Below, in pieces: positions 39,533-50,965 of a stretch of DNA of 61,161 nt. Position 1 is the first letter of the stretch. Each line of letters opens with the position of its first letter. This stretch comes from Bacillota bacterium (GTDB taxonomy: Bacteria > Bacillota > Clostridia > Peptostreptococcales > Acidaminobacteraceae). The DNA lies in contig JAUMWO010000001.1 of NCBI GenBank assembly GCA_030529605.1, forward strand, positions 1 to 61,161, in the 5' to 3' direction. The position numbers and the translations under genes were made by a program. The notes beneath the pieces are model-generated. The model was not told the origin of the DNA. It made no database searches and was given only the letters and a program-made list of their open reading frames with translations.

Positions 39533-40885
39533 TTATGCCCAGATCTCATCGTCCGTAGGGACTTTGATTTTTGCGCTGAGCGGCGCAATGCGAGTGATAT
39601 TGAGCAGATGCTTGTAGGTGAAGTTCTCGGAAATCGAGTTATTTCCCCACGAGCCGCAGCCCAGAGTGTTGGTCACGGCGAGACCGTTCTGCATCGATCC
39701 GCCCGCCGTTGTAGCCGACGGAGCGTTGACCACAAAGCGCGAGACATTCAGCTCGCTGCCGGCCTTGATGATATTGCCCTGGTTGTTCGAGTGGATCGCC
39801 GCCGTGTGACCGCTTCCCTCGAGGTTGAGGTTGGTCTTCGCGATCAGAATCGCTTCCTCGAAATTGTCGTACGGATATGCCGAGAGCACCGGGCACATCT
39901 TCTCTTTGGAGATCATATCCGCAGCGCCGTAACCCTCGGACTCGAGCACGAGCACACGAGTGCCTTCCGGAATCGCGATTCCCGCCTTGTCCGCGATGAA
40001 CTTCGGCGATTGACCGACGATGTCGCCCGCGAGGTGACCGTCTTCAAAGATCGCACCGACCACTTTCGCTTTGTCCGCCATCGGTACGATGTACGCTTTG
40101 CTCGCTTCGAATGCCTTCATCACTTCTTCGCGCTGATCGCGTGGGTAGATGAAACTTTGCTCGCCGGAGCAGATGATGCCGTTGTCGAAGGTACGACCAG
40201 CGACGACTTTCGCAGCGGCCGCCGCATAGTCGATATGGCGATCCAAGATGACTTGGACATTCCCTGCGCCGACACCGAAGGACGGCTTTCCGGAGGAGTA
40301 CGCCGATTTGACCATCGCCATACCGCCCGTCGCAACGACGACATCCGCTTCCTTCATCAGCTCGCTCGTCTTCTCGATGGAAGGCTCGGCGATGATTTGG
40401 ATCAGGTTCTCAGGTACATTGAACTTCTTGAGGTTTTCCTTGATCAGGCGAACCGTCTCGCCGGAGCATCCTTTCGAACGCGGGTGCGGCGCGATAATGA
40501 TCGCATTCTTTGTCTTGAGGGCAAACATGATCTTGGACATCGGGGTGACGATCGGGTTGGTGGTCGGTGTGATTCCCGCTACGACGCCGATCGGCTTCGC
40601 CACTTCGATCAAACCGGTACGATCGCAGATGCTCAGAATACCCATCGACTTCTTGCCGCGAATGTCGTTCCAGATCGCTTTGGATTTGCCTTTGTTCTTG
40701 GCAACCTTGTCTTCGTAAACGCCCATGCGCGTCTCTTTGACCGCCATGTCCGCGAGCATTTCCGCATTGTCGTACACGGTTTTACCGACCGTCTTGACGA
40801 TCTGATCGACCGTATCCTGGTCGAAGTTCAGCGCGTATTCCGCTTGCGCTTCACGCGCCTTTTGAACCATTTCCTTGATGTTCAT
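39533..40885 (-). CDS. sucD: CoA-acylating succinate-semialdehyde dehydrogenase
   Basis: Closely resembles Clostridium kluyveri SucD along its whole length (AEMLADMAVKETRMGVYEDKVAKNKGKS..., GIICSGEQS, LGCGSWGNNSISEN, ...DDEIWA). Confidence 0.9.
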   Translation of the reverse strand: MNIKEMVQKAREAQAEYALNFDQDTVDQIVKTVGKTVYDNAEMLADMAVKETRMGVYEDKVAKNKGKSKAIWNDIRGKKSMGILSICDRTGLIEVAKPIGVVAGITPTTNPIVTPMSKIMFALKTKNAIIIAPHPRSKGCSGETVRLIKENLKKFNVPENLIQIIAEPSIEKTSELMKEADVVVATGGMAMVKSAYSSGKPSFGVGAGNVQVILDRHIDYAAAAAKVVAGRTFDNGIICSGEQSFIYPRDQREEVMKAFEASKAYIVPMADKAKVVGAIFEDGHLAGDIVGQSPKFIADKAGIAIPEGTRVLVLESEGYGAADMISKEKMCPVLSAYPYDNFEEAILIAKTNLNLEGSGHTAAIHSNNQGNIIKAGSELNVSRFVVNAPSATTAGGSMQNGLAVTNTLGCGSWGNNSISENFTYKHLLNITRIAPLSAKIKVPTDDEIWA

Positions 40886-40946
40886 CGAATTGTTTCCGCC
40901 TTATCTGATTATTTGTTGTAGTTTGTCTTGCAGTTGGTCGATGCGC

Positions 40947-42062
40947 CTAGTAGAGCGCCTTGTAAATGTCGCGGATCTCATCGCGAGAAAGCTCGACATA
41001 GTTGTTCGCGAGCAGACGCTGCTGTCCGGCGATCACACTGTCGGCAAAAGATTCGATCTCCGATTCCTTCATGCCGTAAGTGCTGAGGCGATTCTTGGAC
41101 AGAAGGTTGCCGAGGAGCTTCTCGAGCTCGTCATATACTTTGTCCGGAGTGGTTCCGAGCAACTCCGCATAGATCTTGTTGAGTCGAACGATGCGGCCGG
41201 TCGGATTTTTCTTTTGGTAGTACTTGAAGATTTCAGTAAAAAACTGATAATTGGACTCGCCATGCGGTACATGGTAGGTGCCGCCGAGCGGATACGACAT
41301 CGCGTGAACCGCACCGACACCGGTGTTGCCGAATGCGATGCCGGCATAGTTGCTCGCCATCAGCATCTCATCGAGACATTCCATACGATACGCTTCGCCT
41401 TTAGCGACAATGTTTTGGTAGATGCCGACGATGATGCGGATCGCTTCGATCGCATACAGCTCGGTGTACGGATTGGATTTTGGAGAAACAAAGGACTCCG
41501 TCGCATGAATCAACGCGTCGATCGAGCTGTAAACATAGAATTTGTACGGAAGCGTCTTGATCATTTCCGGAATCAGGACCGCATCGTCGGCGAGCAGTTC
41601 ATCGACCGCAAGCCCTTTCTTCGTGCCGAGGGACTTGAGTTCCGCGATCGAGATATTGGTCACTTCGGATCCGGTACCGCAGGTCGTCGGAACGATGACC
41701 AATTCCTTTTCTTTGATTAGATCGACACGACGTTCGAACGCGTCGACGACATTGTCGATCCCTTTGAGAACAAAGAGCTTCGAGATGTCGATGACCGTAC
41801 CGCCGCCGACCGCGATGATGCGCTTGAACTCATACTTCTTGATCTCTTGGAGCATCGCGTTCATCATTTCATCCGACGGCTCGCCCACGCCGTATTTCTC
41901 TTGGAAAATAAAGCGGGACTGGAGGCCGAGCGGCTTCATGAACGGCTCATAGATGAATTCGTTGGTGACGACGACGTCGTCCGCTCCGATTTGAAACTCT
42001 TTCGCAAATTCTGCAAAAGTGTCAAAACGGTGTAGTCTGGATTTGAGTTTGAATAGCTGCAT
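40947..42062 (-). CDS. 4hbD: 4-hydroxybutyrate dehydrogenase (iron-containing ADH family)
   Basis: Trimmed to the ATG at 42062 (MQLFKLKSRLHRFDTFAEFAKEF). Near-collinear with C. kluyveri 4HbD (VPTTCGTGSEVTN, GVGAVHAMSYPLGGTYHVPHGE, ...IYKALY). Confidence 0.9.
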   Translation of the reverse strand: MQLFKLKSRLHRFDTFAEFAKEFQIGADDVVVTNEFIYEPFMKPLGLQSRFIFQEKYGVGEPSDEMMNAMLQEIKKYEFKRIIAVGGGTVIDISKLFVLKGIDNVVDAFERRVDLIKEKELVIVPTTCGTGSEVTNISIAELKSLGTKKGLAVDELLADDAVLIPEMIKTLPYKFYVYSSIDALIHATESFVSPKSNPYTELYAIEAIRIIVGIYQNIVAKGEAYRMECLDEMLMASNYAGIAFGNTGVGAVHAMSYPLGGTYHVPHGESNYQFFTEIFKYYQKKNPTGRIVRLNKIYAELLGTTPDKVYDELEKLLGNLLSKNRLSTYGMKESEIESFADSVIAGQQRLLANNYVELSRDEIRDIYKALY

Positions 42063-42063
42063 C

Positions 42064-43362
42064 TTATCTCTCCTTTGGAAATCTTTTCTTGAATTCTTCT
42101 TCGAGCATCGGTCTGTGATCCGGGTGAGCGATAGCGACCAGTGCCTTGGCACGCTCACGCAGTGTTTTGCCGCGCAGATGAGCAATTCCGTATTCCGTGA
42201 TGATGTAGTCCACGTCATTGCGCGTCGTCGTGACGGCTGTGCCCTCCTTCAGGAAAGGCACGATGCGCGAAACCTTGCCACCGGCAGCCGTCGAAGGAAT
42301 CGCGATGATCGATTTGCCTCCCTTCGCCGCCGATGCGCCGCGCACATAGTCGACTTGTCCGCCGGTACCGCTGAACTGTCTGAGCCCGATCGATTCCGAA
42401 GCGACCTGACCCATGAGATCCACCTCGATGCAGGAGTTGATCGAAATCATATTCTCATTCTGCATAATCGTCAGAGGGTTGTTGACATAGTCGACCGGAT
42501 AAAGCTCCACATCTTTGTTGTGGTCGATGAAATCGTAGAGCGCTTTGGTCCCCATCAAGAAGGTCGAAACCATCTTGCCCGGATGAAGCGTCTTTTTGGC
42601 TCCGGTGATGCAGCCGCGCTTCACGAGCTCCAGTGCACCGTCGGAGAACATCTCCGTATGGATCCCGAGATCCTTCTTGTCGCCCAGGAACATCAGAACC
42701 GCATCCGGAATCCCGCCGATCCCGAGCTGAAGCGTGTCGCCGTCTTTGATCAGCGAAGCGCAGTGACGTCCGATCTCCTTTTCGATGTCGCCGATCGGTC
42801 CCGGCTTAAGTTCGTACAATGGGTAGGAGCAAGGAATGATGTGGTCGATCTGATCGAGGTGAATGAAGTTGTCCCCATAGACATAAGGCATCTGATCATT
42901 GACCTCGGCGATGACGATCTTGGCATTTTCAGCCGCCGGCTTTGTGTAATCGCAAGAGATACCGAAGCTGCAGTTGCCGTTTTCATCCGGAGCCGAGACT
43001 TGAATCACGGCGACATCGACATCGATGCTTCCGTTTCGGAACAGTCGCGGCACTTCGTAGAAGAAGCAAGGGGTAAAGTCCGCCCGATCCTCCTCGACCG
43101 CTTTGCGCGTGTTTGCGCCGACAAAAATCGCATTATGCCGGAAATTTTCTTCATACTCAGGGAGGGCATATCGGCCCTCCCCCAGTCCCAGCATATGGAT
43201 GATTTGAACATTTCTGTAGTCTGCGCTGTGATCCAGCAGCGCTTTGATCGTCTCTTGAGGTACCGCCGCCGCGTGCGCAAAGACGACTTTGTCGTTGTCT
43301 TTGATGTGACGAATCGCCTCTGCCGCGGTCGTTACCTTGTGTGCGTTTTTACCGAAATTCAT
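42064..43362 (-). CDS. cat2: 4-hydroxybutyrate CoA-transferase
   Basis: Acetyl-CoA hydrolase/transferase family. Cat2/AbfT-like motifs include GIGGIPDAV and SGTGGQVDYVRGA. It lies 1 nt upstream of 4hbD. Confidence 0.9.
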   Translation of the reverse strand: MNFGKNAHKVTTAAEAIRHIKDNDKVVFAHAAAVPQETIKALLDHSADYRNVQIIHMLGLGEGRYALPEYEENFRHNAIFVGANTRKAVEEDRADFTPCFFYEVPRLFRNGSIDVDVAVIQVSAPDENGNCSFGISCDYTKPAAENAKIVIAEVNDQMPYVYGDNFIHLDQIDHIIPCSYPLYELKPGPIGDIEKEIGRHCASLIKDGDTLQLGIGGIPDAVLMFLGDKKDLGIHTEMFSDGALELVKRGCITGAKKTLHPGKMVSTFLMGTKALYDFIDHNKDVELYPVDYVNNPLTIMQNENMISINSCIEVDLMGQVASESIGLRQFSGTGGQVDYVRGASAAKGGKSIIAIPSTAAGGKVSRIVPFLKEGTAVTTTRNDVDYIITEYGIAHLRGKTLRERAKALVAIAHPDHRPMLEEEFKKRFPKER

Positions 43363-43409
43363 TCCGTCATCCTCACCTATGCTTGATTTTATTTGATGAT
43401 GTTACGATG

Positions 43410-44876
43410 TTATGCGCGGTCTCTGGAAACGTCGACATGCGCAAGTTCGCGCGCGAGCGCTTTCTTCGCTTCGAGATTTCCCTGGCGCGAAATCATGATG
43501 CGCTGTGCTTGTGGAGAACCCGCACCGTGCATCGACTCGGTACGATAGCCGACCGCCGCCGTTCCGAGCGTGATGTTCTCGATCAGGCGCAGGATGCGCA
43601 TACGGTTTTCGGTGTCTTTGCCGACTTTACCTGCCAGATATTTCTTGACATATGCGCCGAGTTTCTCGTCTTTGAAGTCCGCCTCGGAAGGCATAGTGAC
43701 CATCAAACCGCCTGCGATATCCTCGGCGAGACGCGCAATCTCGTAAGGGAAACGCGTCACGTTCTGCTTGCAGACATTCGCGAGAAGCAGGTCGATCAGG
43801 TAGTTGCCGGACTCGGTTTTGTGCGATTCGTACGAGCAAGCGAGCGCACTCGACCAGAGCGTTTCGTTGAGGTGAATCATTTCGATGAGTTTGTCCTTGA
43901 CATGGCTCGCCTTCTCAACGCCATTGTAGTCCGCAGCGAGAGCAGCGGCTCCGATCAGAACGTCACCGACACCGGTCTTACAAGCGTAAGACTGTCTGTG
44001 GTATCCCGAGAAGCGCTCGACCATCATGTTGGCATACTTCGCTTCGCGGCACATAAAGACGCGCTCATTCGGTACAAATACATTGTCGAAGATGACGAGA
44101 GCTTCATGTCCGCCGAATTCGCGGTTACCGAGGTCAATGTCTGCGCCCGGCTCCATCTTACGCGTATCGCAAGACTGACGGCCGTAGATCATGAAAACTC
44201 CTTCCGCATCCGAAGGAACCGCAAAGGATACCGCGTAATCCGCGTCCTCGTCCTTCATCGACATCGTCGGCATGATCAGATGCTCATGCGAGTTGACCGC
44301 ACCGGTCTGGTGAGCCTTCGCACCGCGAACGACGATACCGTCCTCACGCACTTCGACGACATGCAGGTACATATCCGGATCTTCCTGTTTGGAAGGCGCC
44401 AGACCGCGATCGCCTTTCGGGTCGGTCATCGCACCGTCGATTACGAGGTCATTCTTCTGAGCAAATTTTACATATTCGATGAAACGCTTGTGGTACTCCG
44501 TTCCATACTCTTTGTCCATTTCGTAAGTTGTCGAATAAATTGCATTGAGCGCGTCCATACCGACACATCGCTGGAAGCAAGAACCGGTCTTTTGACCGAG
44601 CAAACGCTGCATCTTGATCTTCTTGACCAAGTCGTCTTGGCTCATGTGGATGTGGCAGAAACGGTTGACTCGCTCGCCGGTGAATGGAGAGATCGCAGTG
44701 ACCAAATCACGATACTCATCCTGCTGTGCCAGCTCGTAAGTCATCGCTACTGAATTGAGCGACGGCCGAATGATCGGATGATCGACCGGATTCTCGATCC
44801 GCTCTCCGAACATGTACACTTTGAGGTCCAGTTTCCGTAAACTTTCGATGTACTCTTCCCTTGTTTTCAACGCCAT
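43410..44876 (-). CDS. abfD: 4-hydroxybutyryl-CoA dehydratase / vinylacetyl-CoA delta-isomerase
   Basis: 488 aa with an AbfD-like N-terminus (MALKTREEYIESLRKLDLKVYMFGERIENPVDHPII). The Cys/His cluster-ligand context is CHIHMSQDD ... CFQRC. Confidence 0.92.
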   Translation of the reverse strand: MALKTREEYIESLRKLDLKVYMFGERIENPVDHPIIRPSLNSVAMTYELAQQDEYRDLVTAISPFTGERVNRFCHIHMSQDDLVKKIKMQRLLGQKTGSCFQRCVGMDALNAIYSTTYEMDKEYGTEYHKRFIEYVKFAQKNDLVIDGAMTDPKGDRGLAPSKQEDPDMYLHVVEVREDGIVVRGAKAHQTGAVNSHEHLIMPTMSMKDEDADYAVSFAVPSDAEGVFMIYGRQSCDTRKMEPGADIDLGNREFGGHEALVIFDNVFVPNERVFMCREAKYANMMVERFSGYHRQSYACKTGVGDVLIGAAALAADYNGVEKASHVKDKLIEMIHLNETLWSSALACSYESHKTESGNYLIDLLLANVCKQNVTRFPYEIARLAEDIAGGLMVTMPSEADFKDEKLGAYVKKYLAGKVGKDTENRMRILRLIENITLGTAAVGYRTESMHGAGSPQAQRIMISRQGNLEAKKALARELAHVDVSRDRA

Positions 44877-44936: not shown

Positions 44937-44958
44937 TTTTAGACAATTAAGTCTAAAA
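44937..44958. promoter_or_regulatory. 22-bp palindrome in the abfD leader (candidate operator or RNA hairpin)
   Basis: TTTTAGAC-AATTAA-GTCTAAAA has perfect 8-bp inverted arms. It lies between the predicted promoter and the abfD ATG. Confidence 0.35.
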
Positions 44959-45080: not shown

Positions 45081-45113
45081 AAGCAAAGAGCACCCGAGAT
45101 CGCTCTCAGGTGC
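45081..45113 (-). terminator. Rho-independent terminator closing the CitMHS-DUF1446-DUF4387 operon
   Basis: The minus strand reads GCACCTGAGA-GCGA-TCTCGGGTGC (10 bp including one G-U pair), followed by TCTTTGCTTATT. Confidence 0.6.
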
Positions 45114-45159
45114 CCTTCGGGTCGAATATCAAATCGTTGGGAAGATCCTTTTGAAGTGG

Positions 45160-45465
45160 TTACCAGTCGACTTCCATGTCGAGCAAATAGCAGGACAATC
45201 CCTTGCCGTGCATATCGAGCGACAGAGTCCGGGTCACCCCGCCTCCGAGCGCTTCATACATCACGAAGTTGAGAGCACCGAGCTGCGGCACTTCGTATCG
45301 CACCACATCGCCCTTTACCATGCCCGCAAAATGCTGTTTCACGCGCTCCGGTGTTACCAGACGCGCCATTTTTTCATAATCCTCGATGCGGTACGCAATC
45401 AGAGAAATGTTTGAGATGTTGCCCTTATCGCCGGTTCGCGAATGGGCGATATTACATAATTTCAT
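45160..45465 (-). CDS. DUF4387-like small protein (equivalent to the C-terminal domain of fused AtuA proteins)
   Basis: ATG at 45465 after SD GGAGG. MKLCNIAHSRTGDKGNISNISLIAY...LGALNFVMYEALGGGVTRTLSLD resembles the DUF4387 family (from memory). Confidence 0.65.
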   Translation of the reverse strand: MKLCNIAHSRTGDKGNISNISLIAYRIEDYEKMARLVTPERVKQHFAGMVKGDVVRYEVPQLGALNFVMYEALGGGVTRTLSLDMHGKGLSCYLLDMEVDW

Positions 45466-45475
45466 CAAGCACCTC

Positions 45476-46825
45476 CTACGATTCCGTCATCTTGACGGTC
45501 GGATGAACATCGGAACGATCGATGACGATCGAAGCGACCGATACGATTTCTCGGATCCCCTTCGTCGCGCCGCATCCACCTGCCGGTCCGTTGGTGTAAA
45601 GAGCTTCCACTTCTTCGCCGACCCGCGCCGCCGTCGCCCGATCTTTCGCCCGTGCCGAGACGCGCAGTCGGATCTCGGTCGGCATGGTTTCCGGCTGTCG
45701 GCACCCGGCGCCCCAATACAGCGAATTGACTCCGATGAGGTCGACCTTGAGTTCCTCAAATTCGATATTGCGCAATTTGAGGCGATCGACCACGATCTCA
45801 CCGGCCAACTTTGCCCGTTCATAGGCTCCCGGGCCGCCGTAGCTGATCTCACCGTCGCCGATGACGCAGTCCTTGTAACCCAGGGACACCTTCAATGTCT
45901 GCGGCTTTTGCTTGCCGCCAGCGCCCTTCGCCTCGACCACGTCCTTCCCTTTTTCCAAGAATTGAACCTTCGAAAAGTCGGCTACGACATCCGGCGTGAT
46001 GTAATTTGCGGGATCGTGGATCTCGTAAAGCATCTGCTCCGTGCAGGTATGCGCGTTGACGACACCGCCGCTTCCCTCGACCTTTGTGACAAAGAAGGAA
46101 CCGTCTTCGCACACTTCGACAAGCGGGAAACCGAGTCGTGCCAAACCGTCGACGGTTTTTCCCGCAGCCGGATCCGCGTAATATCCTCCGCTGACCTGTC
46201 CTCCGCATTCGAGCAAATGACCGATCAACGTTCCCTTGCCGAGCTTATCCCAATCGTCCGGAGACCAGCCGAACTCATAAATCATCGGCGCCATAAAAAT
46301 GGCAGGATCCGCCACGCGACCGGTGATCACGATATCCGCGCCACCGCGGAGCGCTTCGACGATCCCTTCGACGCCAAGGTAAACATTGGCGGACACCACC
46401 TCGCCGTCGAGCTCCGAAAGCGGCTTTCCCGTCTCCCAGACGGTAGCGTCCTGATACTTGGTCAATTTTTCCAGCACATCGTCGCCGAGCACCGCCGCGA
46501 CACGAAGTCCATGAATTCCGTGCTTCCGCGCAATCTCGATGCAGACATCCACCGCCGCCTCCGGATTGGCAGCGCCCATATTGGTGATCACTTTGACGCC
46601 GTGCTTCTTCGCGAGCGGGATCACCTTTTCCATCCGGTAGGCCAGCAGACCGTTGTAGCCTTTTTTCGGATCCTTCAGCTTTTCCATCTGCGCGATCGCG
46701 ATCGTACGCTCCGCAAGACACTCAAAGCTGATATAGTTCAGATTTCCTTTCTCGATGAGTTCCAACGCCGGTTCCAGACGGTCGCCCGCATAACCGGCTC
46801 CACTACCGATTCGTAAGGTTTTCAT
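45476..46825 (-). CDS. DUF1446 / AtuA-like (acyclic terpene utilisation family) protein, function unknown
   Basis: 449 aa. The N-terminus MKTLRIGSGAGYAGDRLEPALELIE... is typical of DUF1446. SD AGGAGG. Confidence 0.75.
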   Translation of the reverse strand: MKTLRIGSGAGYAGDRLEPALELIEKGNLNYISFECLAERTIAIAQMEKLKDPKKGYNGLLAYRMEKVIPLAKKHGVKVITNMGAANPEAAVDVCIEIARKHGIHGLRVAAVLGDDVLEKLTKYQDATVWETGKPLSELDGEVVSANVYLGVEGIVEALRGGADIVITGRVADPAIFMAPMIYEFGWSPDDWDKLGKGTLIGHLLECGGQVSGGYYADPAAGKTVDGLARLGFPLVEVCEDGSFFVTKVEGSGGVVNAHTCTEQMLYEIHDPANYITPDVVADFSKVQFLEKGKDVVEAKGAGGKQKPQTLKVSLGYKDCVIGDGEISYGGPGAYERAKLAGEIVVDRLKLRNIEFEELKVDLIGVNSLYWGAGCRQPETMPTEIRLRVSARAKDRATAARVGEEVEALYTNGPAGGCGATKGIREIVSVASIVIDRSDVHPTVKMTES

Positions 46826-46833
46826 AGTTCCTC

Positions 46834-48183
46834 CTAAATCGCAATCGCTCCGATCACCACGGAGATCACGAGCATAATCAGCGTCACCGCAAAGGCCATC
46901 GGAATCGTCTTCTTCTGATGTTCACCAAACTCGACACCGGCGAGCCCGATCAGAAGGAAGGTGGAAGGGGTCAGCGGAGACACCGGGAAACCGGTCGTCA
47001 TCTGCCCGAGAATAGCGGCGCGACCGATCATGATCGCTTCCACACCAAAGCCGGAAGCGGTATTTCCGAGAACAGGCAACACACCGAAATAGAAGGAATC
47101 CGGATCAAAGAGCAGGGATGCCGGCATCGCAATCGCACCGGTGATCACCGGGAAATAGCGACCGAGCGAGACGGGGATGATGCTGACGAGCGCATCCGAC
47201 ATCGCGGTGATCATTCCGGTCCCTTTCATAATGCCGGTAAACGCTCCCGCTGCAAACAGAACGGACGCCATCATCAGAGCCGACTTCGCATGAGCATCGA
47301 TGCGCTCTTTTTGAAGTTTCGGTTGCGGATAGTTGACAAGCATCGCAAGCACAAAGGCCACCATGAAAATGACTTCCGGCTTGATCTTGAAATTTCCGCC
47401 GACGATCAGACCCGTGATGGTCAAGACGATCAGAAGCACATTGATCCAGAATCGATTTGGACGCAGCAGCGCCTGCTTCTCCGGAGAAAGCTCCTCTTCC
47501 GTCAGTTGGATCTTTCCGGCACTCGAGGCGCCAAGGCGTTTTTTCTCCGCTTTTCCGAGCAGGAAGGCAAACACGAGCACCGTGAGGAGTCCGCCGATGA
47601 CCGCCGGAAGCACCGGCATAAAAAGATTCATAACATCGATGTTGAACGCGGTCGCGGCACGAATCGTCGGGCCGCCCCAAGGCAGGATGTTCATTGTACC
47701 TGCGGAAAGCGCGACGATGGTAGCGAGCGTCGTTCGCTTCATGCCGACCGCATCATACACCGGAATCAAAGCAGGAACACAGATCAGGAAGGTGATGGCT
47801 CCGGAGCCGTCCAAGTGGATGATCATCGCCAAAATCGCCGTACCGAGAGCAATTTTGACCGGATCCGTACCGATCACTTTGAGGATGCCGCGGATGATCG
47901 GGCGGAAGGTTCCGGCATCCGTCAGAATACCGAAGAAGAGAATCGAGAAGATGAACATGACGCCCGTCGCAGCGACGGTTCCGACCCCTTTCGAAATCAT
48001 TCCGCCCAGAGCAACGACATTCGCCGCCGGGATAATATCACCCTTTTCATTCGGGAAAAAGAAGCAAGCGACCAAGCCGATCAAGATCGGAATCAAGATC
48101 AGAGCCACGGTCGGCGAGAGCTTCTTCGTCATAATCAGAAGAAGCACAAGCACTACAGTAAGAAAGCCAAGGATAGCCAGCAT
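46834..48183 (-). CDS. CitMHS-family citrate/tricarboxylate:cation symporter
   Basis: 449 aa and multi-pass, with a CitM/CitH-like N-terminus (MLAILGFLTVVLVLLLIMTKKLSPTVALILIPIL). SD AGGAGG. Confidence 0.8.
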   Translation of the reverse strand: MLAILGFLTVVLVLLLIMTKKLSPTVALILIPILIGLVACFFFPNEKGDIIPAANVVALGGMISKGVGTVAATGVMFIFSILFFGILTDAGTFRPIIRGILKVIGTDPVKIALGTAILAMIIHLDGSGAITFLICVPALIPVYDAVGMKRTTLATIVALSAGTMNILPWGGPTIRAATAFNIDVMNLFMPVLPAVIGGLLTVLVFAFLLGKAEKKRLGASSAGKIQLTEEELSPEKQALLRPNRFWINVLLIVLTITGLIVGGNFKIKPEVIFMVAFVLAMLVNYPQPKLQKERIDAHAKSALMMASVLFAAGAFTGIMKGTGMITAMSDALVSIIPVSLGRYFPVITGAIAMPASLLFDPDSFYFGVLPVLGNTASGFGVEAIMIGRAAILGQMTTGFPVSPLTPSTFLLIGLAGVEFGEHQKKTIPMAFAVTLIMLVISVVIGAIAI

Positions 48184-48216
48184 AAAAACCTCCTATTTGA
48201 GATACTTTATGCTTAC

Positions 48217-48231
48217 GCAAACAATGTGCCA
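48217..48231 (-). promoter_or_regulatory. Sigma-54 (-24/-12) promoter
   Basis: The minus strand reads TTGGCACATTGTTTGCG, which is TGGCAC-N5-TTGC with exact consensus spacing. The -12 GC lies 34 nt upstream of the CitMHS ATG. Confidence 0.75.
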
Positions 48232-48382
48232 AACCGAAAGACTCACCACGAGAAGTCAAAGAAATTGTGAAAAGATTCCCATTGCGGCAGCGCAGGGGGA
48301 TGGAACATGCTATCTGTGGAGAAACTGAGAACGACGCGTGTCCAAAATTCTAAAATTCGAGAACATTTCTAAAATCGCGGAA

Positions 48383-49741
48383 TTACGACTCCTCGGTTCC
48401 CGCCAGTTTTTTGTACAGACCGGAAAGGCTGATTCCGAGCTGTTGCGCCGTTTTGCGCTTACCGGAGACGCCACTGCCGTTTTCTTCGAGCAAACGGAGG
48501 ATTTCCGCCCGCTCAAAGCGACGGACGCGCTCCGCCAAAGTTCCCCGGGACGAAGAGTCAAAAGTCGGTTCCGCCAAGACTTGCCGCATTCCCGCCGGCA
48601 ACATCGACTCCCGAATCACACCGTCTTCGCTGAGATAAGAAAGAAATTCGAGCACATTGCGCAGTTCACGCGCATTTCCCGGCCAGGGATACGATCGCAT
48701 TGCGGACACAGCTTCGGGAGTCAACCGGATCGCGCGGCGACATCGCACGGAAAACTCGAGCAACAACCGGTGCGCCAACGGCTCGATGTCTTCGATGCGT
48801 TCGCGCAAAGGCGGAATCCGGATCGGGAATGCGTTCAGACGATAATAGAGATCCGCTCGGAAGCGTCCTTCACGCAGCGCTTGGCTCATGTCTACATTGG
48901 TAGAAGCGATGACGCGCACGTCGACCGCACGCTCTTCCACAGCACCGACCGGACGAATTTTGCGCTCCTGGAGCGCCCTCAAAATCTTTGCCTGCAGTCC
49001 CGGTTCGATCTCCGTGATCTCATCGAGGAACAGAGTACCTCCCGATGCCGCTTCGAACAGGCCGACCTTGCCGCCCTTTTTCGCCCCCGTAAACGCGCCT
49101 TCCACATAGCCGAAAAGCTCTGATTCCAAGGTACTGTGGTTGAAGGTAGCGCAGTTGATCGCGAGAAAGACTTGATCGCGCCGGTCGCCCGCATTGTGAA
49201 TCGCCTGCGCGTACAGTTCCTTGCCGGTACCGCTTTCGGATTGCAAAAAGACGGTCGCGTCCGTTGCGGCGGCACGCCGCGCCATCTCTTTCACCGCAAT
49301 CGAAGCGGGAGATTCCGCCACAATGTCGTCGAAGGTATACTTGGCGGATGCGGACGCGCGCGCAATCCGTCGGATCACGAGTTTCGAGTGTCGCAGTGCT
49401 TCGTCGATCGCCGCCTTCAAATCCTCCGCCTGCTGAAAAAATGTGACCACGGAGAGTCCTGCAACGATCTCGCCCCCTCGGCGAATCGGATACATGTTGA
49501 CAAAATAAAGATCCGACCCTTCGCGGCGCGGGACACGCAGAACCGCTTTTCCGCTTTTCAGCACATCCGGCAGCATCGCCCCGGCGCGAATTTCACGCAA
49601 TGTCTGACCGACGAGCTGGTCCAGCGGGCGCTTTAAAAACGAGCAATAGGCGTCGTTGGCATACAAAATCACGCCCTCCGTATCGATCAATAAAATTCCT
49701 TCTTCCATCGCATCGAAGATGATGCGCACTTGGTCGGTCAT
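48383..49741 (-). CDS. Sigma-54-dependent transcriptional activator (PAS + AAA+ + Fis-type HTH)
   Basis: Walker A SESGTGKE, GAFTGA loop (EGAFTGAKKGG), and C-terminal HTH TAQQLGISLSGLYKKL. Trimmed to the ATG at 49741 (MTDQVRIIFDAMEEGILLID starts the PAS domain). The track ORF extends 204 codons further, across the divergent pirin promoter and gene. Confidence 0.88.
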   Translation of the reverse strand: MTDQVRIIFDAMEEGILLIDTEGVILYANDAYCSFLKRPLDQLVGQTLREIRAGAMLPDVLKSGKAVLRVPRREGSDLYFVNMYPIRRGGEIVAGLSVVTFFQQAEDLKAAIDEALRHSKLVIRRIARASASAKYTFDDIVAESPASIAVKEMARRAAATDATVFLQSESGTGKELYAQAIHNAGDRRDQVFLAINCATFNHSTLESELFGYVEGAFTGAKKGGKVGLFEAASGGTLFLDEITEIEPGLQAKILRALQERKIRPVGAVEERAVDVRVIASTNVDMSQALREGRFRADLYYRLNAFPIRIPPLRERIEDIEPLAHRLLLEFSVRCRRAIRLTPEAVSAMRSYPWPGNARELRNVLEFLSYLSEDGVIRESMLPAGMRQVLAEPTFDSSSRGTLAERVRRFERAEILRLLEENGSGVSGKRKTAQQLGISLSGLYKKLAGTEES

Positions 49742-49936: not shown

Positions 49937-50965
49937 ATGCCATCGTTTCGACCGATAGAGACAATCATCCGCGACGTCCCCCCGTACTGGGTGGGCAACG
50001 GATTCTATGTCCGACAATATTTTCCGACGAAGCGCATCGAAAACTTTTTTCAGCGCTTCTCTCCTTTTCTCGTGATGGACTACGGCGCGCCGACGCATTT
50101 CAAAGGCACGGATCGCCCTGCAGGCATCGGACCGCACCCACATCGCGGGATCGCCACCGTCACCTTCGCCTTCGAAGGCTCGATCGAGCACGGCGACAAC
50201 CAGGGCAACCGCGGCGTCATCCATCCCGGTGACATCCAGTGGATGACCGCCGGCGACGGGATCCTCCACAAAGAGTATCACGAGCCCGAATACGCCAAGA
50301 ACGACCGAATCCTTCATATGATCCAGCTCTGGGTCGACCTGCCGACGCCGCACAAACGCACCGCACCGACCTACCAGGCGATCACAGCGGATCAGATGGG
50401 CAAGCGCGTGCTCGCAAACGGCGCCGAGGTAATCGTTTACGCCGGAGAAGCCTTCGGCACGACCGGGCCGGCCGCGACCTTCTCACCGATGAACATCTAC
50501 AAGATTCGCCTCAGCAAGGGACAGAGCGTCACGCTCCGCGAACCGGCGGGCTACAACACCGGCGCCCTCGTGATCGCAGGCTCCGCGCTCGTCAATCCGG
50601 CGACGCTCGGTGAATCCGATGCCGAGACGGCGACCGAGGTGACCGCTCACGCCGGGCGCGACGCCTGCCACCATACGTCCGCAGCGAGCGCGTCCCCGAC
50701 GGCGAAGGTTTGCCGGGATGCCGAGACGGCGGATCGATCGCACCACACCCGCGCTCTGGCGCACGACTTTATGCTGTTCTCCAATGCCGGCGAAGAGATC
50801 CTCTTCGTGTGCGAGGACGAGAGCGCGGAGATCGTCGTCTTGAGCGGACAGCCGCTCAACCAACCGGTTGCGGCACAGGGACCATTCGTGATGAACACGC
50901 AAGCCGAACTCCTCGAAGCGCACCGAGACTATCAGGAAGGTCGCTTCGGAAGCCATGTTTTCTAA
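49937..50965 (+). CDS. Pirin-family bicupin protein
   Basis: Trimmed to the ATG at 49937 (SD AGGAGGG). Motif HPHRGIATVTFAFEGSIEHGDNQGNRGVIHPGDIQWMTAGDGILHKE. Confidence 0.85.
   Translation: MPSFRPIETIIRDVPPYWVGNGFYVRQYFPTKRIENFFQRFSPFLVMDYGAPTHFKGTDRPAGIGPHPHRGIATVTFAFEGSIEHGDNQGNRGVIHPGDIQWMTAGDGILHKEYHEPEYAKNDRILHMIQLWVDLPTPHKRTAPTYQAITADQMGKRVLANGAEVIVYAGEAFGTTGPAATFSPMNIYKIRLSKGQSVTLREPAGYNTGALVIAGSALVNPATLGESDAETATEVTAHAGRDACHHTSAASASPTAKVCRDAETADRSHHTRALAHDFMLFSNAGEEILFVCEDESAEIVVLSGQPLNQPVAAQGPFVMNTQAELLEAHRDYQEGRFGSHVF

Follow-up and report, generated by a model that had tools for sequence, protein, structure and literature searches.

The operon described here is a real, sigma-54-controlled unit of four genes, and it probably encodes a two-subunit enzyme, related to citramalate lyase, that splits an imported citrate-like acid. 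The reading that we prefer, and in which we place about even confidence, is that of an inducible operon by which a citrate-like hydroxy-dicarboxylic acid, most likely 3-hydroxy-3-methylglutarate (HMG), is taken up and enters the first step of its breakdown. Throughout, we infer that the enzyme is a lyase, which substrate it uses, the cargo of the transporter, the PAS ligand and any role of a nucleotide.

Organization of the operon

Our analysis was based on a 61-kb stretch of DNA (61,161 nt), referred to as the window. ORF calls placed the four genes of the sigma-54-type unit co-directionally on the minus strand, at the positions given in the first-pass annotation. The features considered are:

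48383..49741, minus strand: EBP, sigma-54 enhancer-binding activator, 452 aa (Pfam, motifs, homologue length)
48348..48372, minus strand: candidate upstream activator site (UAS), inverted repeat and half site
48217..48231, minus strand: sigma-54 -24/-12 promoter TGGCACATTGTTTGC, 33 nt upstream of the CitMHS ATG
46834..48183, minus strand: secondary transporter of the CitMHS family, 449 aa, predicted to import the substrate acid (PF03600, TIGR00784)
45476..46825, minus strand: AtuA_N, large subunit of the AtuA family, 449 aa, predicted to be catalytic (PF07287, AF2, Foldseek)
45160..45465, minus strand: AtuA_C, AtuA ferredoxin-like small subunit, 101 aa (PF23544)
45084..45119, minus strand: intrinsic-terminator-like hairpin with a 16-bp stem and UUUGCUUAUU tail (RNA fold)

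Re-measurement returned the reported spacing, namely 199 bp between the EBP and CitMHS genes and 8 and 10 nt for the remaining two intergenic gaps, with GGAGG Shine-Dalgarno sites ahead of each of the three structural genes (CitMHS, AtuA_N and AtuA_C). The terminator, annotated earlier at 45081-45113, is indeed present as a hairpin, with slightly different boundaries (45084-45119). RNA folding assigned it -29.6 kcal/mol (z = -4.06; 0 of 200 shuffles were equally stable); its U-tail is weak, and a partial version of the hairpin was also returned by a separate scan.

The operon's neighbors in the window are a pirin gene and an abfD-type operon. The suggested link to the 4-hydroxybutyrate operon, which might consume a C4 product, was not supported, as such adjacency was found in 0 of 80 related loci, with a candidate case only in L081, a 99%-identical relative, and as the two units are separated by a terminator and have separate promoters.

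Activator and promoter

The EBP matches Sigma54_activat (PF00158, 208 bits) together with PAS_4/PAS_8/PAS and AAA_lid_14 in Pfam, and is composed of an N-terminal PAS sensor, an AAA+ sigma-54 interaction domain with an intact GAFTGA loop (residues 215-220, 49082-49099) and a C-terminal Fis-type HTH (about 48428-48448). Among NCBIfam models, the best match was PrdR-like, far under the cutoff of that model. The reading frame stays open up to 50353; as homologues beside the same operon are 444-463 aa long, translation is likely to start from the ATG at 49741.

The consensus -24/-12 element that had been noted in the EBP-CitMHS spacer was confirmed. TGGCACATTGTTTGC is the sole exact match to TGGCAC-N5-TTGC on both strands of the window, and of the 17 Bacillota loci in which an EBP gene adjoins the operon, 15 have an equivalent element ahead of CitMHS, as do L001, L016 and L081, while none was found upstream of CitMHS among LysR-type loci. 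It should be noted that when one mismatch is allowed, the pattern occurs five times in the window as compared to 3.0 expected, i.e. without enrichment. The candidate UAS consists of a full inverted repeat, TTCTCGAATTTTAGAA (48348-48363), and a half site, TTAGAA (48367-48372); it precedes the -24 element by about 125 bp, within the 100-200 bp expected of such sites. Two to three copies of TTCTAA-N4-TTAGAA are also found upstream of the sigma-54 promoter in seven species (L001, L003, L004, L008, L009, L016 and L019), and the motif is a putative binding site of the EBP. The search for rpoN found no copy within the 61-kb window; in one relative (L003), rpoN lies immediately upstream of the EBP gene.

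The AtuA pair and its relation to citramalate lyase

The large subunit matches AtuA (PF07287) with 533.7 bits and the small subunit matches AtuA_ferredoxin (PF23544) with 121.7 bits, such that both models of the family are represented. HMM searches thus agreed with the earlier labels for the EBP, CitMHS and AtuA large subunit proteins, and not with that of the 101-aa protein, which had been labeled DUF4387: PF14330 gave no match to it even at E <= 10, while the CmlB control scored 119.5 bits. The Pfam label was therefore wrong, although the domain that was meant is correct, since in fused AtuA proteins PF23544 makes up the C-terminal part. DUF4387 (PF14330) is, in turn, the small subunit of CmlAB. 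Across 32 homologues, H8, R10, G12-D13-K14-G15, N19, R56, N66, D84 and H86-G87-K88 of the small subunit are invariant.

The split arrangement had been regarded as unusual, yet with > 8000 homologues of about 447 aa it is the common form. AtuA_N and AtuA_C are also fused in other species, in both domain orders. The family comprises 932 clusters (50% identity, E <= 1e-30), and in about 79 of 81 loci the small subunit gene lies directly 3' of that of the large subunit, with L062 and L078 ending at contig edges. By adjacency and fusion, the two parts thus form one unit.

The AF2 model of the large subunit (pLDDT 88.7) finds as its top Foldseek match 9evf_A, with an alignment that spans the full length (E 2.5e-25, TM 0.69/0.68), while the next matches are limited to some 130 residues, with E > 3e-4. 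9evf_A is CmlA, the AtuA-family chain of citramalate lyase, solved with ADP and pyruvate. Profile comparison also relates the large subunit to CmlA (9erq_A/9evf, E 9e-6), with G169-R170-x-x-D173, E206-C207, Y267-E268, K312 and E384 common to both; CmlA itself falls in Pfam AtuA (67 bits), and identity between the two is only 16-26%. For the small subunit, the best PDB match was CmlB (9evf_B; prob 0.97, E 0.16, TM 0.48), a weak match because the model is poor (pLDDT 62.9), and profile comparison gave no similarity to CmlB (hhalign probability 0.75%). The large subunit is predicted to be the catalytic part of a lyase that cleaves a hydroxy acid independently of CoA.

The earlier statement that no activity has been established for the AtuA family is outdated, as entries 9erq/9evf are titled 'Citramalate lyase, subunit A (cmlA)' (9evf was released on 2025-10-08) and as cmlAB of Raoultella planticola was employed as a direct citramalate lyase (2026 preprint, bioRxiv 10.64898/2026.01.16.699985).

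The similarity to CmlAB of Enterobacteria extends from the arrangement of a ~450-aa AtuA large subunit followed by a ~100-aa small subunit, through the full-length fold and the GRxxD, EC and YE motifs of the large subunit, to the use, predicted in our case, of a free hydroxy-dicarboxylate and the adjacency to a carboxylate importer. The two systems differ, however, in the small subunit (PF14330 in CmlAB, PF23544 here), in the low large-subunit identity and in gene context. CmlAB loci (L082/L083) carry glutamate mutase, methylaspartate ammonia-lyase (methylaspartase), a mesaconase-type fumarase, an SDF transporter and a LysR regulator, and neither the window nor the 80 related loci show the glutamate mutase/methylaspartase/mesaconase context. 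Moreover, the product of CmlAB is pyruvate, while neighboring genes in relatives of our operon point to acetoacetate.

Conserved gene neighborhoods and the transporter

Of the 80 related loci, 44, from Bacillota, Pseudomonadota and Bacteroidota, keep the triad CitMHS-AtuA_N-AtuA_C with gene order and strand unchanged and with CitMHS (38-69% identity) directly 5' of the pair. In other loci, AtuA pairs adjoin TTT/Bug, TctA or TRAP-TAXI importers, which agrees with the proposal that split pairs recurrently sit beside carboxylate importers. More distant pairs have other partners (Bug/TctC, Ldh_2, amidohydrolase, TRAP), and this variety suggests several substrates within the family.

The genes that follow the triad are of an acetoacetate-consuming type in 31 of the 44 CitMHS triads, as compared to 0 of 36 loci without CitMHS, and cleavage of HMG into acetoacetate and acetate is thus the likely reaction. 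Twenty CitMHS-linked loci encode the A and B subunits of a CoA-transferase, followed by an acetyl-CoA acetyltransferase, with the A subunit reaching the AtoD equivalog (376 bits, cutoff 315). In 11 Oscillospiraceae/Lachnospiraceae loci, the next gene encodes an ADC-family protein (PF06314), which none of the NCBIfam models matched, those for acetoacetate decarboxylase included; the ADC family includes non-decarboxylases. A Rubrivivax locus also contains Pta-like and acetate-kinase-like genes, as read from translations only. No acetoacetate genes were found beside the triad in the window or in its 13 closest CitMHS-linked relatives, nor anywhere in the 61 kb. The window protein is 56% and 54% identical to the AtoDA- and ADC-linked groups, respectively, while these groups share 50% identity between them, and CitMHS-linked proteins differ from the rest at only five alignment positions.

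The transporter scores 94.7 bits against PF03600 (cutoff 31.9) and 414.6 bits against TIGR00784 (cutoff 259.7). To our knowledge, all characterized CitMHS members carry metal-citrate. Nonetheless, the gene neighborhoods of relatives speak for another acid as the cargo, and the substrate in this operon is probably not citrate. The 'tricarboxylate' that had been named as the substrate class is likewise unlikely, as these neighbors indicate a C6 hydroxy-dicarboxylate. The operon resembles the CitM/CitH metal-citrate systems with their own regulators in having a CitMHS-family transporter induced alongside catabolic genes, and differs in that the transporter is coupled to an AtuA-type pair and a sigma-54 activator.

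Proposed function

In the scheme that we propose, the PAS-domain activator would sense the acid or a derivative, occupy the TTCTAA-N4-TTAGAA site and open the sigma-54 promoter ahead of the CitMHS gene. The acid would enter via CitMHS, and the AtuA pair (PF07287 and PF23544) would remove acetate from the tertiary carbinol without CoA, converting HMG to acetoacetate and acetate by the type of reaction through which the structural relative CmlAB converts citramalate to pyruvate and acetate. Enzymes for the further use of acetoacetate would be encoded at other sites of this genome, whereas in other species their genes lie directly downstream. The earlier suggestion that a citrate-like hydroxy acid undergoes a reaction of the lyase type, by analogy with 3-hydroxy-3-alkylglutaryl chemistry, fits both the resemblance to CmlAB and the acetoacetate-consuming neighbors. 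The presence of ADP in 9evf hints that a nucleotide may be required, which the scheme of HMG cleavage does not explain.

In Snodgrassella alvi, the cluster reads LysR-CitMHS-AtuA_N-AtuA_C-AtoDA-thiolase (loci L021, L025-L027, L033 and L039). HMG was depleted in the bee gut by five of five Snodgrassella strains tested, and S. alvi produced acetate from HMG in vitro (PMC11343714). Cleavage of HMG by this cluster would agree with this physiology and supply the unannotated first steps of HMG use in S. alvi. As S. alvi also grows on citrate, its CitMHS could, however, be a citrate carrier.

The most serious competitor of HMG cleavage, although we consider it clearly the less probable, keeps the importer and a Cml-like, CoA-independent lyase and replaces the acid by citrate (yielding oxaloacetate and acetate), homocitrate or another 3-hydroxy-3-substituted glutarate; in one variant, the substrate of the window clade might differ from that of the AtoDA- and ADC-linked clades. 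This is in line with membership in CitMHS/TIGR00784, of which the characterized members carry citrate, with the missing acetoacetate genes beside the window clade and with the varied partners of distant pairs, and an ADC-family protein could in principle, speculatively, decarboxylate oxaloacetate. The CoA-transferase and acetyl-CoA acetyltransferase of 20 loci fit only a 3-oxoacid such as acetoacetate, however, and the intermediate identity of the window protein between two acetoacetate-linked groups and the small number of positions (five) that set CitMHS-linked proteins apart also speak against it. That the pair performs no C-C cleavage, acting instead as an isomerase, dehydratase, decarboxylase or ATP-dependent activating enzyme, or that it acts on a CoA ester as proposed for the Pseudomonas Atu pathway, is improbable. 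In its favor are the remoteness of the fold match to CmlA, the ADP in the crystal of CmlA and the invariant H-x-R-x-GDKG motif of the small subunit, for which profile comparison found no counterpart in CmlB. Against it, the core motifs common to CmlA are conserved, no CoA ligase or transferase precedes the pair (in the window clade there is none at all) and Atu-type carboxylase and acyl-CoA dehydrogenase genes were not seen nearby.

It is very unlikely that the pair is the CmlAB orthologue itself, with citramalate or mesaconate being imported. While CmlA and CmlB are the best structural matches of the two subunits and both large subunits belong to Pfam AtuA, the identity of 16-26%, a small subunit of PF23544 rather than PF14330 (with the hhalign result above) and the lack of the CmlAB neighbor set near the window genes and in the 80 loci all speak against orthology, and pyruvate would require neither CoA-transferase nor thiolase. 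Finally, the possibility that the genes are not a regulatory or functional unit, being adjacent by chance or preceded by a fortuitous promoter match, can be practically dismissed. The mismatched promoter pattern is not enriched, but the sole exact match falls in the spacer ahead of the transporter gene, promoter, UAS and gene order are kept across many species and the gaps of 8-10 nt carry Shine-Dalgarno sequences. Chance adjacency of the four genes is contradicted by the conservation data. The self-contained, EBP-controlled sigma-54 operon of the first-pass annotation was thus supported, and the interpretation given there was supported in part.

Relation to known lyases and implications

AtuA of Pseudomonas has a proposed, unproven role in the cleavage of acetate from 3-hydroxy-3-isohexenylglutaryl-CoA. 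It combines PF07287 and PF23544 as well, there fused in ~600-aa proteins, and shares with our prediction the type of reaction and the 3-hydroxy-3-alkylglutaryl skeleton. Here, by contrast, the parts are separate polypeptides accompanied by a transporter, and the substrate is probably a free acid rather than a CoA ester; genes for geranyl-CoA carboxylase, hydratase and acyl-CoA dehydrogenase were found neither in the window neighborhood nor in the recurrent neighbor clusters. The predicted chemistry, in which a 3-hydroxy-3-substituted (di/tri)carboxylate loses a C2 unit and yields a 3-oxo/2-oxo acid, also recalls HMG-CoA lyase (HmgL/LiuE) and citrate lyase CitDEF, genes for which were not found in the operon. 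HMG-CoA lyase is a TIM-barrel acting on a CoA ester and CitDEF is an acyl-carrier-protein-dependent complex, and their folds and mechanisms are unrelated.

A CoA-independent HMG lyase is a family that we propose here and not an established one, and our confidence that CitMHS-linked AtuA_N/AtuA_C pairs are the first such enzymes falls slightly short of even. If they are, the pair and its transporter would be the missing entry steps for gut bacteria feeding on host-derived HMG, with carriers including Snodgrassella alvi of bees, Orbaceae, Serratia and, from animal guts, Oscillospiraceae/Flavonifractor. The AtuA family as a whole would then consist of 'acetate-releasing' tertiary-carbinol lyases, the specificity of which is set by the substituent, i.e. 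a COOH-adjacent methyl (citramalate), methyl (HMG) or isohexenyl (Atu pathway), and the role of AtuA in Pseudomonas would also be settled.

Operon layout and gene identities

The four genes at 45160-49741 form a real, well-delimited operon under sigma-54 control, running in one direction on the minus strand. The coordinates of the first-pass annotation hold, and its labels for the activator, the CitMHS transporter and the AtuA protein are backed by Pfam and NCBIfam:

48383-49741, minus: sigma-54 enhancer-binding activator (EBP), PAS + Sigma54_activat + AAA_lid (Pfam/NCBIfam), GAFTGA intact
48217-48231, minus: sigma-54 promoter TGGCACATTGTTTGC, the sole exact TGGCAC-N5-TTGC of the window
46834-48183, minus: CitMHS transporter, TIGR00784, 414.6 bits (cutoff 259.7)
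45476-46825, minus: AtuA-family large subunit (AtuA_N), PF07287, 533.7 bits
45160-45465, minus: small subunit (AtuA_C), 101 aa, PF23544 'AtuA ferredoxin-like domain', 121.7 bits

The activator and transporter genes are separated by a 199-bp spacer, in which a -24/-12 element had been proposed and in which the exact promoter match indeed lies. The two remaining intergenic gaps measure 8 and 10 nt, with GGAGG in each, and the unit is closed, as had also been expected, by a terminator, a 16-bp hairpin at 45084-45119 (-29.6 kcal/mol, z = -4.06). The label DUF4387, initially given to the small protein, has to be replaced, as PF14330 (DUF4387) is not matched at all and PF23544 is.

Upstream of the ATG at 49741 the activator frame stays open as far as 50353, which would bring it into overlap with a divergent pirin gene. 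As activator homologues adjoining equivalent operons are 444-463 aa long, this ATG is the sensible start. The exact large subunit of the window is absent from the database records; a large-subunit relative of 99% identity is found on a Logan contig (L081) with unchanged layout, where the gene caller's choice of activator start gives 499 aa. Among the species-representative genomes, the closest large subunit reaches 68% identity. The operon is flanked by:

About 49937-50965, plus: pirin-family gene (Pirin + Pirin_C), divergent from the activator
45029-45001, minus: sigma-70-like promoter TTGACA-17-TAAGAT, ahead of the abfD-like gene start at 44876
44937-44958: perfect inverted repeat TTTTAGAC-N6-GTCTAAAA, between this promoter and the abfD-like start
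39533-44876, minus: 4-hydroxybutyrate-type operon, four proteins

The pirin-activator arrangement is the same in L081, and no link of the pirin gene to the operon is evident. The 4-hydroxybutyrate-type operon encodes a 4-hydroxybutyryl-CoA dehydratase-like protein (HpaB_N/HpaB; abfD-type), a CoA-transferase of the acetyl-CoA hydrolase/transferase family, an Fe-alcohol dehydrogenase (Fe-ADH) and an acylating aldehyde dehydrogenase, and the inverted repeat is its candidate operator. The Fe-ADH ORF, listed to 42218, overlaps the CoA-transferase; its true start is probably an internal Met near 42062. The 4-hydroxybutyrate-type operon is a separate transcription unit with its own sigma-70-like promoter beyond the hairpin terminator. 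A link between this operon and the module, as first suggested, was dropped, since none of its four proteins, searched in all related loci, was found adjacent to the module.

Conservation and synteny of the module

Our locus set was obtained by scanning one genome per species and comprises 80 loci with large-subunit relatives of 48-68% identity (handles beginning with L). Neighbouring genes were found by tblastn panels and direct ORF reading, as naive ORF calls gave spurious antisense ORFs at high GC. The small-subunit gene comes next after the large subunit in about 79/81 loci, L062 and L078 ending at contig edges. CitMHS lies directly upstream of the pair, on the same strand, in 44/80 loci from three phyla: Bacillota (Oscillospiraceae, Sedimentibacter, Lutispora, Sporomusa, Symbiobacteriaceae, Flavonifractor, Lawsonibacter), Pseudomonadota (Serratia, Leminorella, Budvicia, Gilliamella, Orbaceae, Snodgrassella, Rubrivivax) and Bacteroidota (Algoriphagus). 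Further pairs adjoin Bug/TctC, TctA or TRAP-TAXI carboxylate importers, which bears out the expectation that split AtuA pairs recur beside such importers.

The split form, contrasted at first with the Pseudomonas fusion, is the rule, with >8000 database homologues of about 447 aa. Fusions exist in both orders, PF07287-PF23544 and PF23544-PF07287, and the two polypeptides therefore work as one enzyme. The ferredoxin-like domain stands at the N-terminus of the fused proteins P0379 and P0419, the reverse of the Pseudomonas-type AtuA order; P0408 and P0414 resemble these two in length and match offset. In P0418 (818 aa) a luciferase-like monooxygenase is fused to the AtuA domain.

Distant AtuA pairs of 48-52% identity (L053-L080 in Burkholderiales, L048-L068 in Rhodobacterales) are accompanied by Bug/TctC binding proteins, Ldh_2-family dehydrogenases, Amidohydro_2 proteins or TRAP-TAXI transporters. 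As no acetoacetate genes were found near these pairs, they probably act on other substrates. A secreted-type PF00756 esterase adjoins the CitMHS–AtuA_N–AtuA_C triad in 3/3 Bacteroidota loci (Algoriphagus/Cyclobacteriaceae; L011:7565-8587, L014:7650-8672, L031:7608-8645) and, speculatively, could release the acid from esters. Plant glycosides contain esters of 3-hydroxy-3-methylglutarate (HMG). In L017 a Peptidase_S15/CocE-type hydrolase lies downstream.

Regulation

A sigma-54 activator stands beside the triad in Bacillota only (n=17 loci), with a divergent LysR regulator instead in Proteobacteria (n=16 loci). TGGCA[CT]-N5-TTGC was found upstream of CitMHS in 15/17 EBP loci, also in L081 and in L001 and L016, two loci where the range covered showed no EBP; every LysR-type locus lacks it. 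In the window clade TTCTAA-N4-TTAGAA occurs as an inverted repeat, present 2-3 times at 60-200 bp ahead of the promoter; in the window, the candidate activator site consists of the repeat TTCTCGAATTTTAGAA and one half site. An Oscillospiraceae clade with a neighbouring acetoacetate-decarboxylase (ADC)-family gene (L030, L037, L038, L040, L042, L044, L047, L056) has a divergent EBP of 35-37% identity, and its upstream repeats read TTGAGAC(A)...GTCTCAA, not TTCTAA-N4-TTAGAA. Sigma-54 control has thus been conserved there and the DNA-recognition specificity changed.

No rpoN was found within the 61-kb window. In an Oscillospiraceae MAG with 67% AtuA_N identity, rpoN (PF00309, PF04963, PF04552; L003:5580-6917) lies immediately upstream of the operon's activator. 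Just upstream of the module in Sedimentibacter saalensis (L009:2859-6733) are a second sigma-54 activator (640 aa) and then aconitase-family large and small subunits (PF00330, PF00694), which may be another hydroxy-acid hydratase unit.

Relation to citramalate lyase

Single-sequence searches of the PDB with either subunit gave no match, and the large subunit reached CmlA, of the two-subunit citramalate lyase CmlAB, by profile and fold search only. In a Foldseek search with its AlphaFold2 model (pLDDT 88.7), 9evf_A ('Citramalate lyase - ADP - pyruvate complex', released 2025-10-08) stands out over the whole chain (E 2.5e-25, TM 0.69), the remaining matches having E > 3e-4 and being confined to the C-terminal ferredoxin-like part. 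The family profile also recovers this chain at sequence level (E 9e-6). Its deposited name is 'Acyclic terpene utilization AtuA family protein | Citramalate lyase, subunit A (cmlA)', and its aligned portion scores 67 bits against Pfam AtuA. Common to both large subunits are G169-R170-x-x-D173, E206-C207, Y267-E268, K312 and E384. The CmlA crystal holds a nucleotide (ADP), to which the lyase scheme gives no role.

In the clusters that carry CmlA homologues, genes for glutamate mutase and methylaspartate ammonia-lyase precede CmlA, and DUF4387 (105 aa), an SDF transporter and a fumarase follow it. This CmlA gene is the DUF1446 gene reported downstream of mal in 2015 (PMC4682846), the sole relevant paper found on DUF1446. 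From the CmlA-DUF4387 adjacency it follows that DUF4387 is the CmlAB small subunit, that of the window being PF23544. Profile comparison detected no similarity of the window small subunit to DUF4387/CmlB, and its profile gave nothing meaningful against the PDB. Its structure, predicted from an alignment of database homologues at low confidence (pLDDT 62.9), has CmlB (9evf_B) as best PDB match (prob 0.97, E 0.16, TM 0.48). As judged from the predicted model, the fold relationship of the large subunit to CmlA is distant, and orthology of the pair to CmlAB is ruled out by 16-26% identity, a different small-subunit family and an unlike genomic context. We infer that the window pair works like CmlAB. 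In NCBIfam (June 2026) neither the two subunits nor CmlAB are covered by a model, and our literature search found no primary paper on CmlAB, none on DUF4387, none on AtuA together with CitMHS and none linking AtuA with HMG.

Candidate substrate

In 20 proteobacterial loci the triad is followed by CoA-transferase A and B subunits and an acetyl-CoA acetyltransferase, the A subunit being an AtoD equivalog (376 bits, cutoff 315). In Rubrivivax, Pta-like and acetate-kinase-like genes, called from translations alone, lie between the post-triad genes. In 11 Oscillospiraceae/Lachnospiraceae loci the gene after the triad encodes an ADC-family protein (PF06314, 77.5 bits). Both neighbour types point to acetoacetate, and neither AtoDA/thiolase nor ADC-family genes were found beside any of 36 AtuA pairs without CitMHS. 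As a Cml-type cleavage giving acetoacetate and acetate would start from HMG, the candidate substrate deduced is HMG, which has the citrate skeleton with CH3 replacing the central carboxylate and thus fits a CitMHS importer. CitMHS would import HMG and the AtuA pair would cleave it to acetoacetate and acetate. HMG, deduced here from the acetoacetate-consuming neighbours of relatives, also matches the '3-hydroxy-3-alkylglutaryl' analogy drawn in the first-pass annotation.

The physiology of Snodgrassella alvi, whose gene order is LysR-CitMHS-AtuA_N-AtuA_C-AtoDA-thiolase, should be considered as an independent line. For ketone-body genes and their fitness in this species, Powell (2016) is cited. 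Host HMG in the bee gut was depleted by 5/5 Snodgrassella strains tested, and S. alvi made acetate from HMG in vitro (PMC11343714), which agrees with the HMG reading. The first steps of this use were called 'not annotated' in a 2024 study.

When these results are referred to the window, it should be noted that its clade (Bacillota and Algoriphagus) carries the regulator, transporter and pair only, and that no AtoDA, thiolase or ADC homologues were found within the 61 kb. The window large subunit shares 56% identity with the AtoDA-linked group and 54% with the ADC-linked one, the value between these two groups being 50%; together with the CitMHS synteny common to all three, this makes the same function likely. 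A substrate signature from specificity-determining positions was abandoned, as only 5 positions differ consistently between CitMHS-linked and other AtuA proteins. We regard it as probable that a hydroxy-polycarboxylate is taken up by way of this operon and undergoes Cml-like cleavage, and for HMG specifically as the substrate we see an even chance. Another acid in its place, handled by the same kind of importer and cleavage, is less likely.

Discussion

AtuA/DUF1446 proteins form a large family in bacteria, fungi and plants, to which, to our knowledge, no reaction had been assigned until the CmlAB structure was deposited in 2025. Within the AtuA/Cml lyases the operon represents a distinct, widespread and uncharacterised subfamily, and its conserved neighbours give this subfamily a concrete candidate reaction, HMG to acetoacetate and acetate. 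If true, this would supply the missing first steps of HMG use in S. alvi, a symbiont of the bee gut, account for the scavenging of HMG or ketone bodies by Clostridia of the gut and widen the range of acids carried by CitMHS transporters. It would also back the assignment, proposed long ago, of Pseudomonas AtuA as the 3-hydroxy-3-isohexenylglutaryl-CoA lyase.
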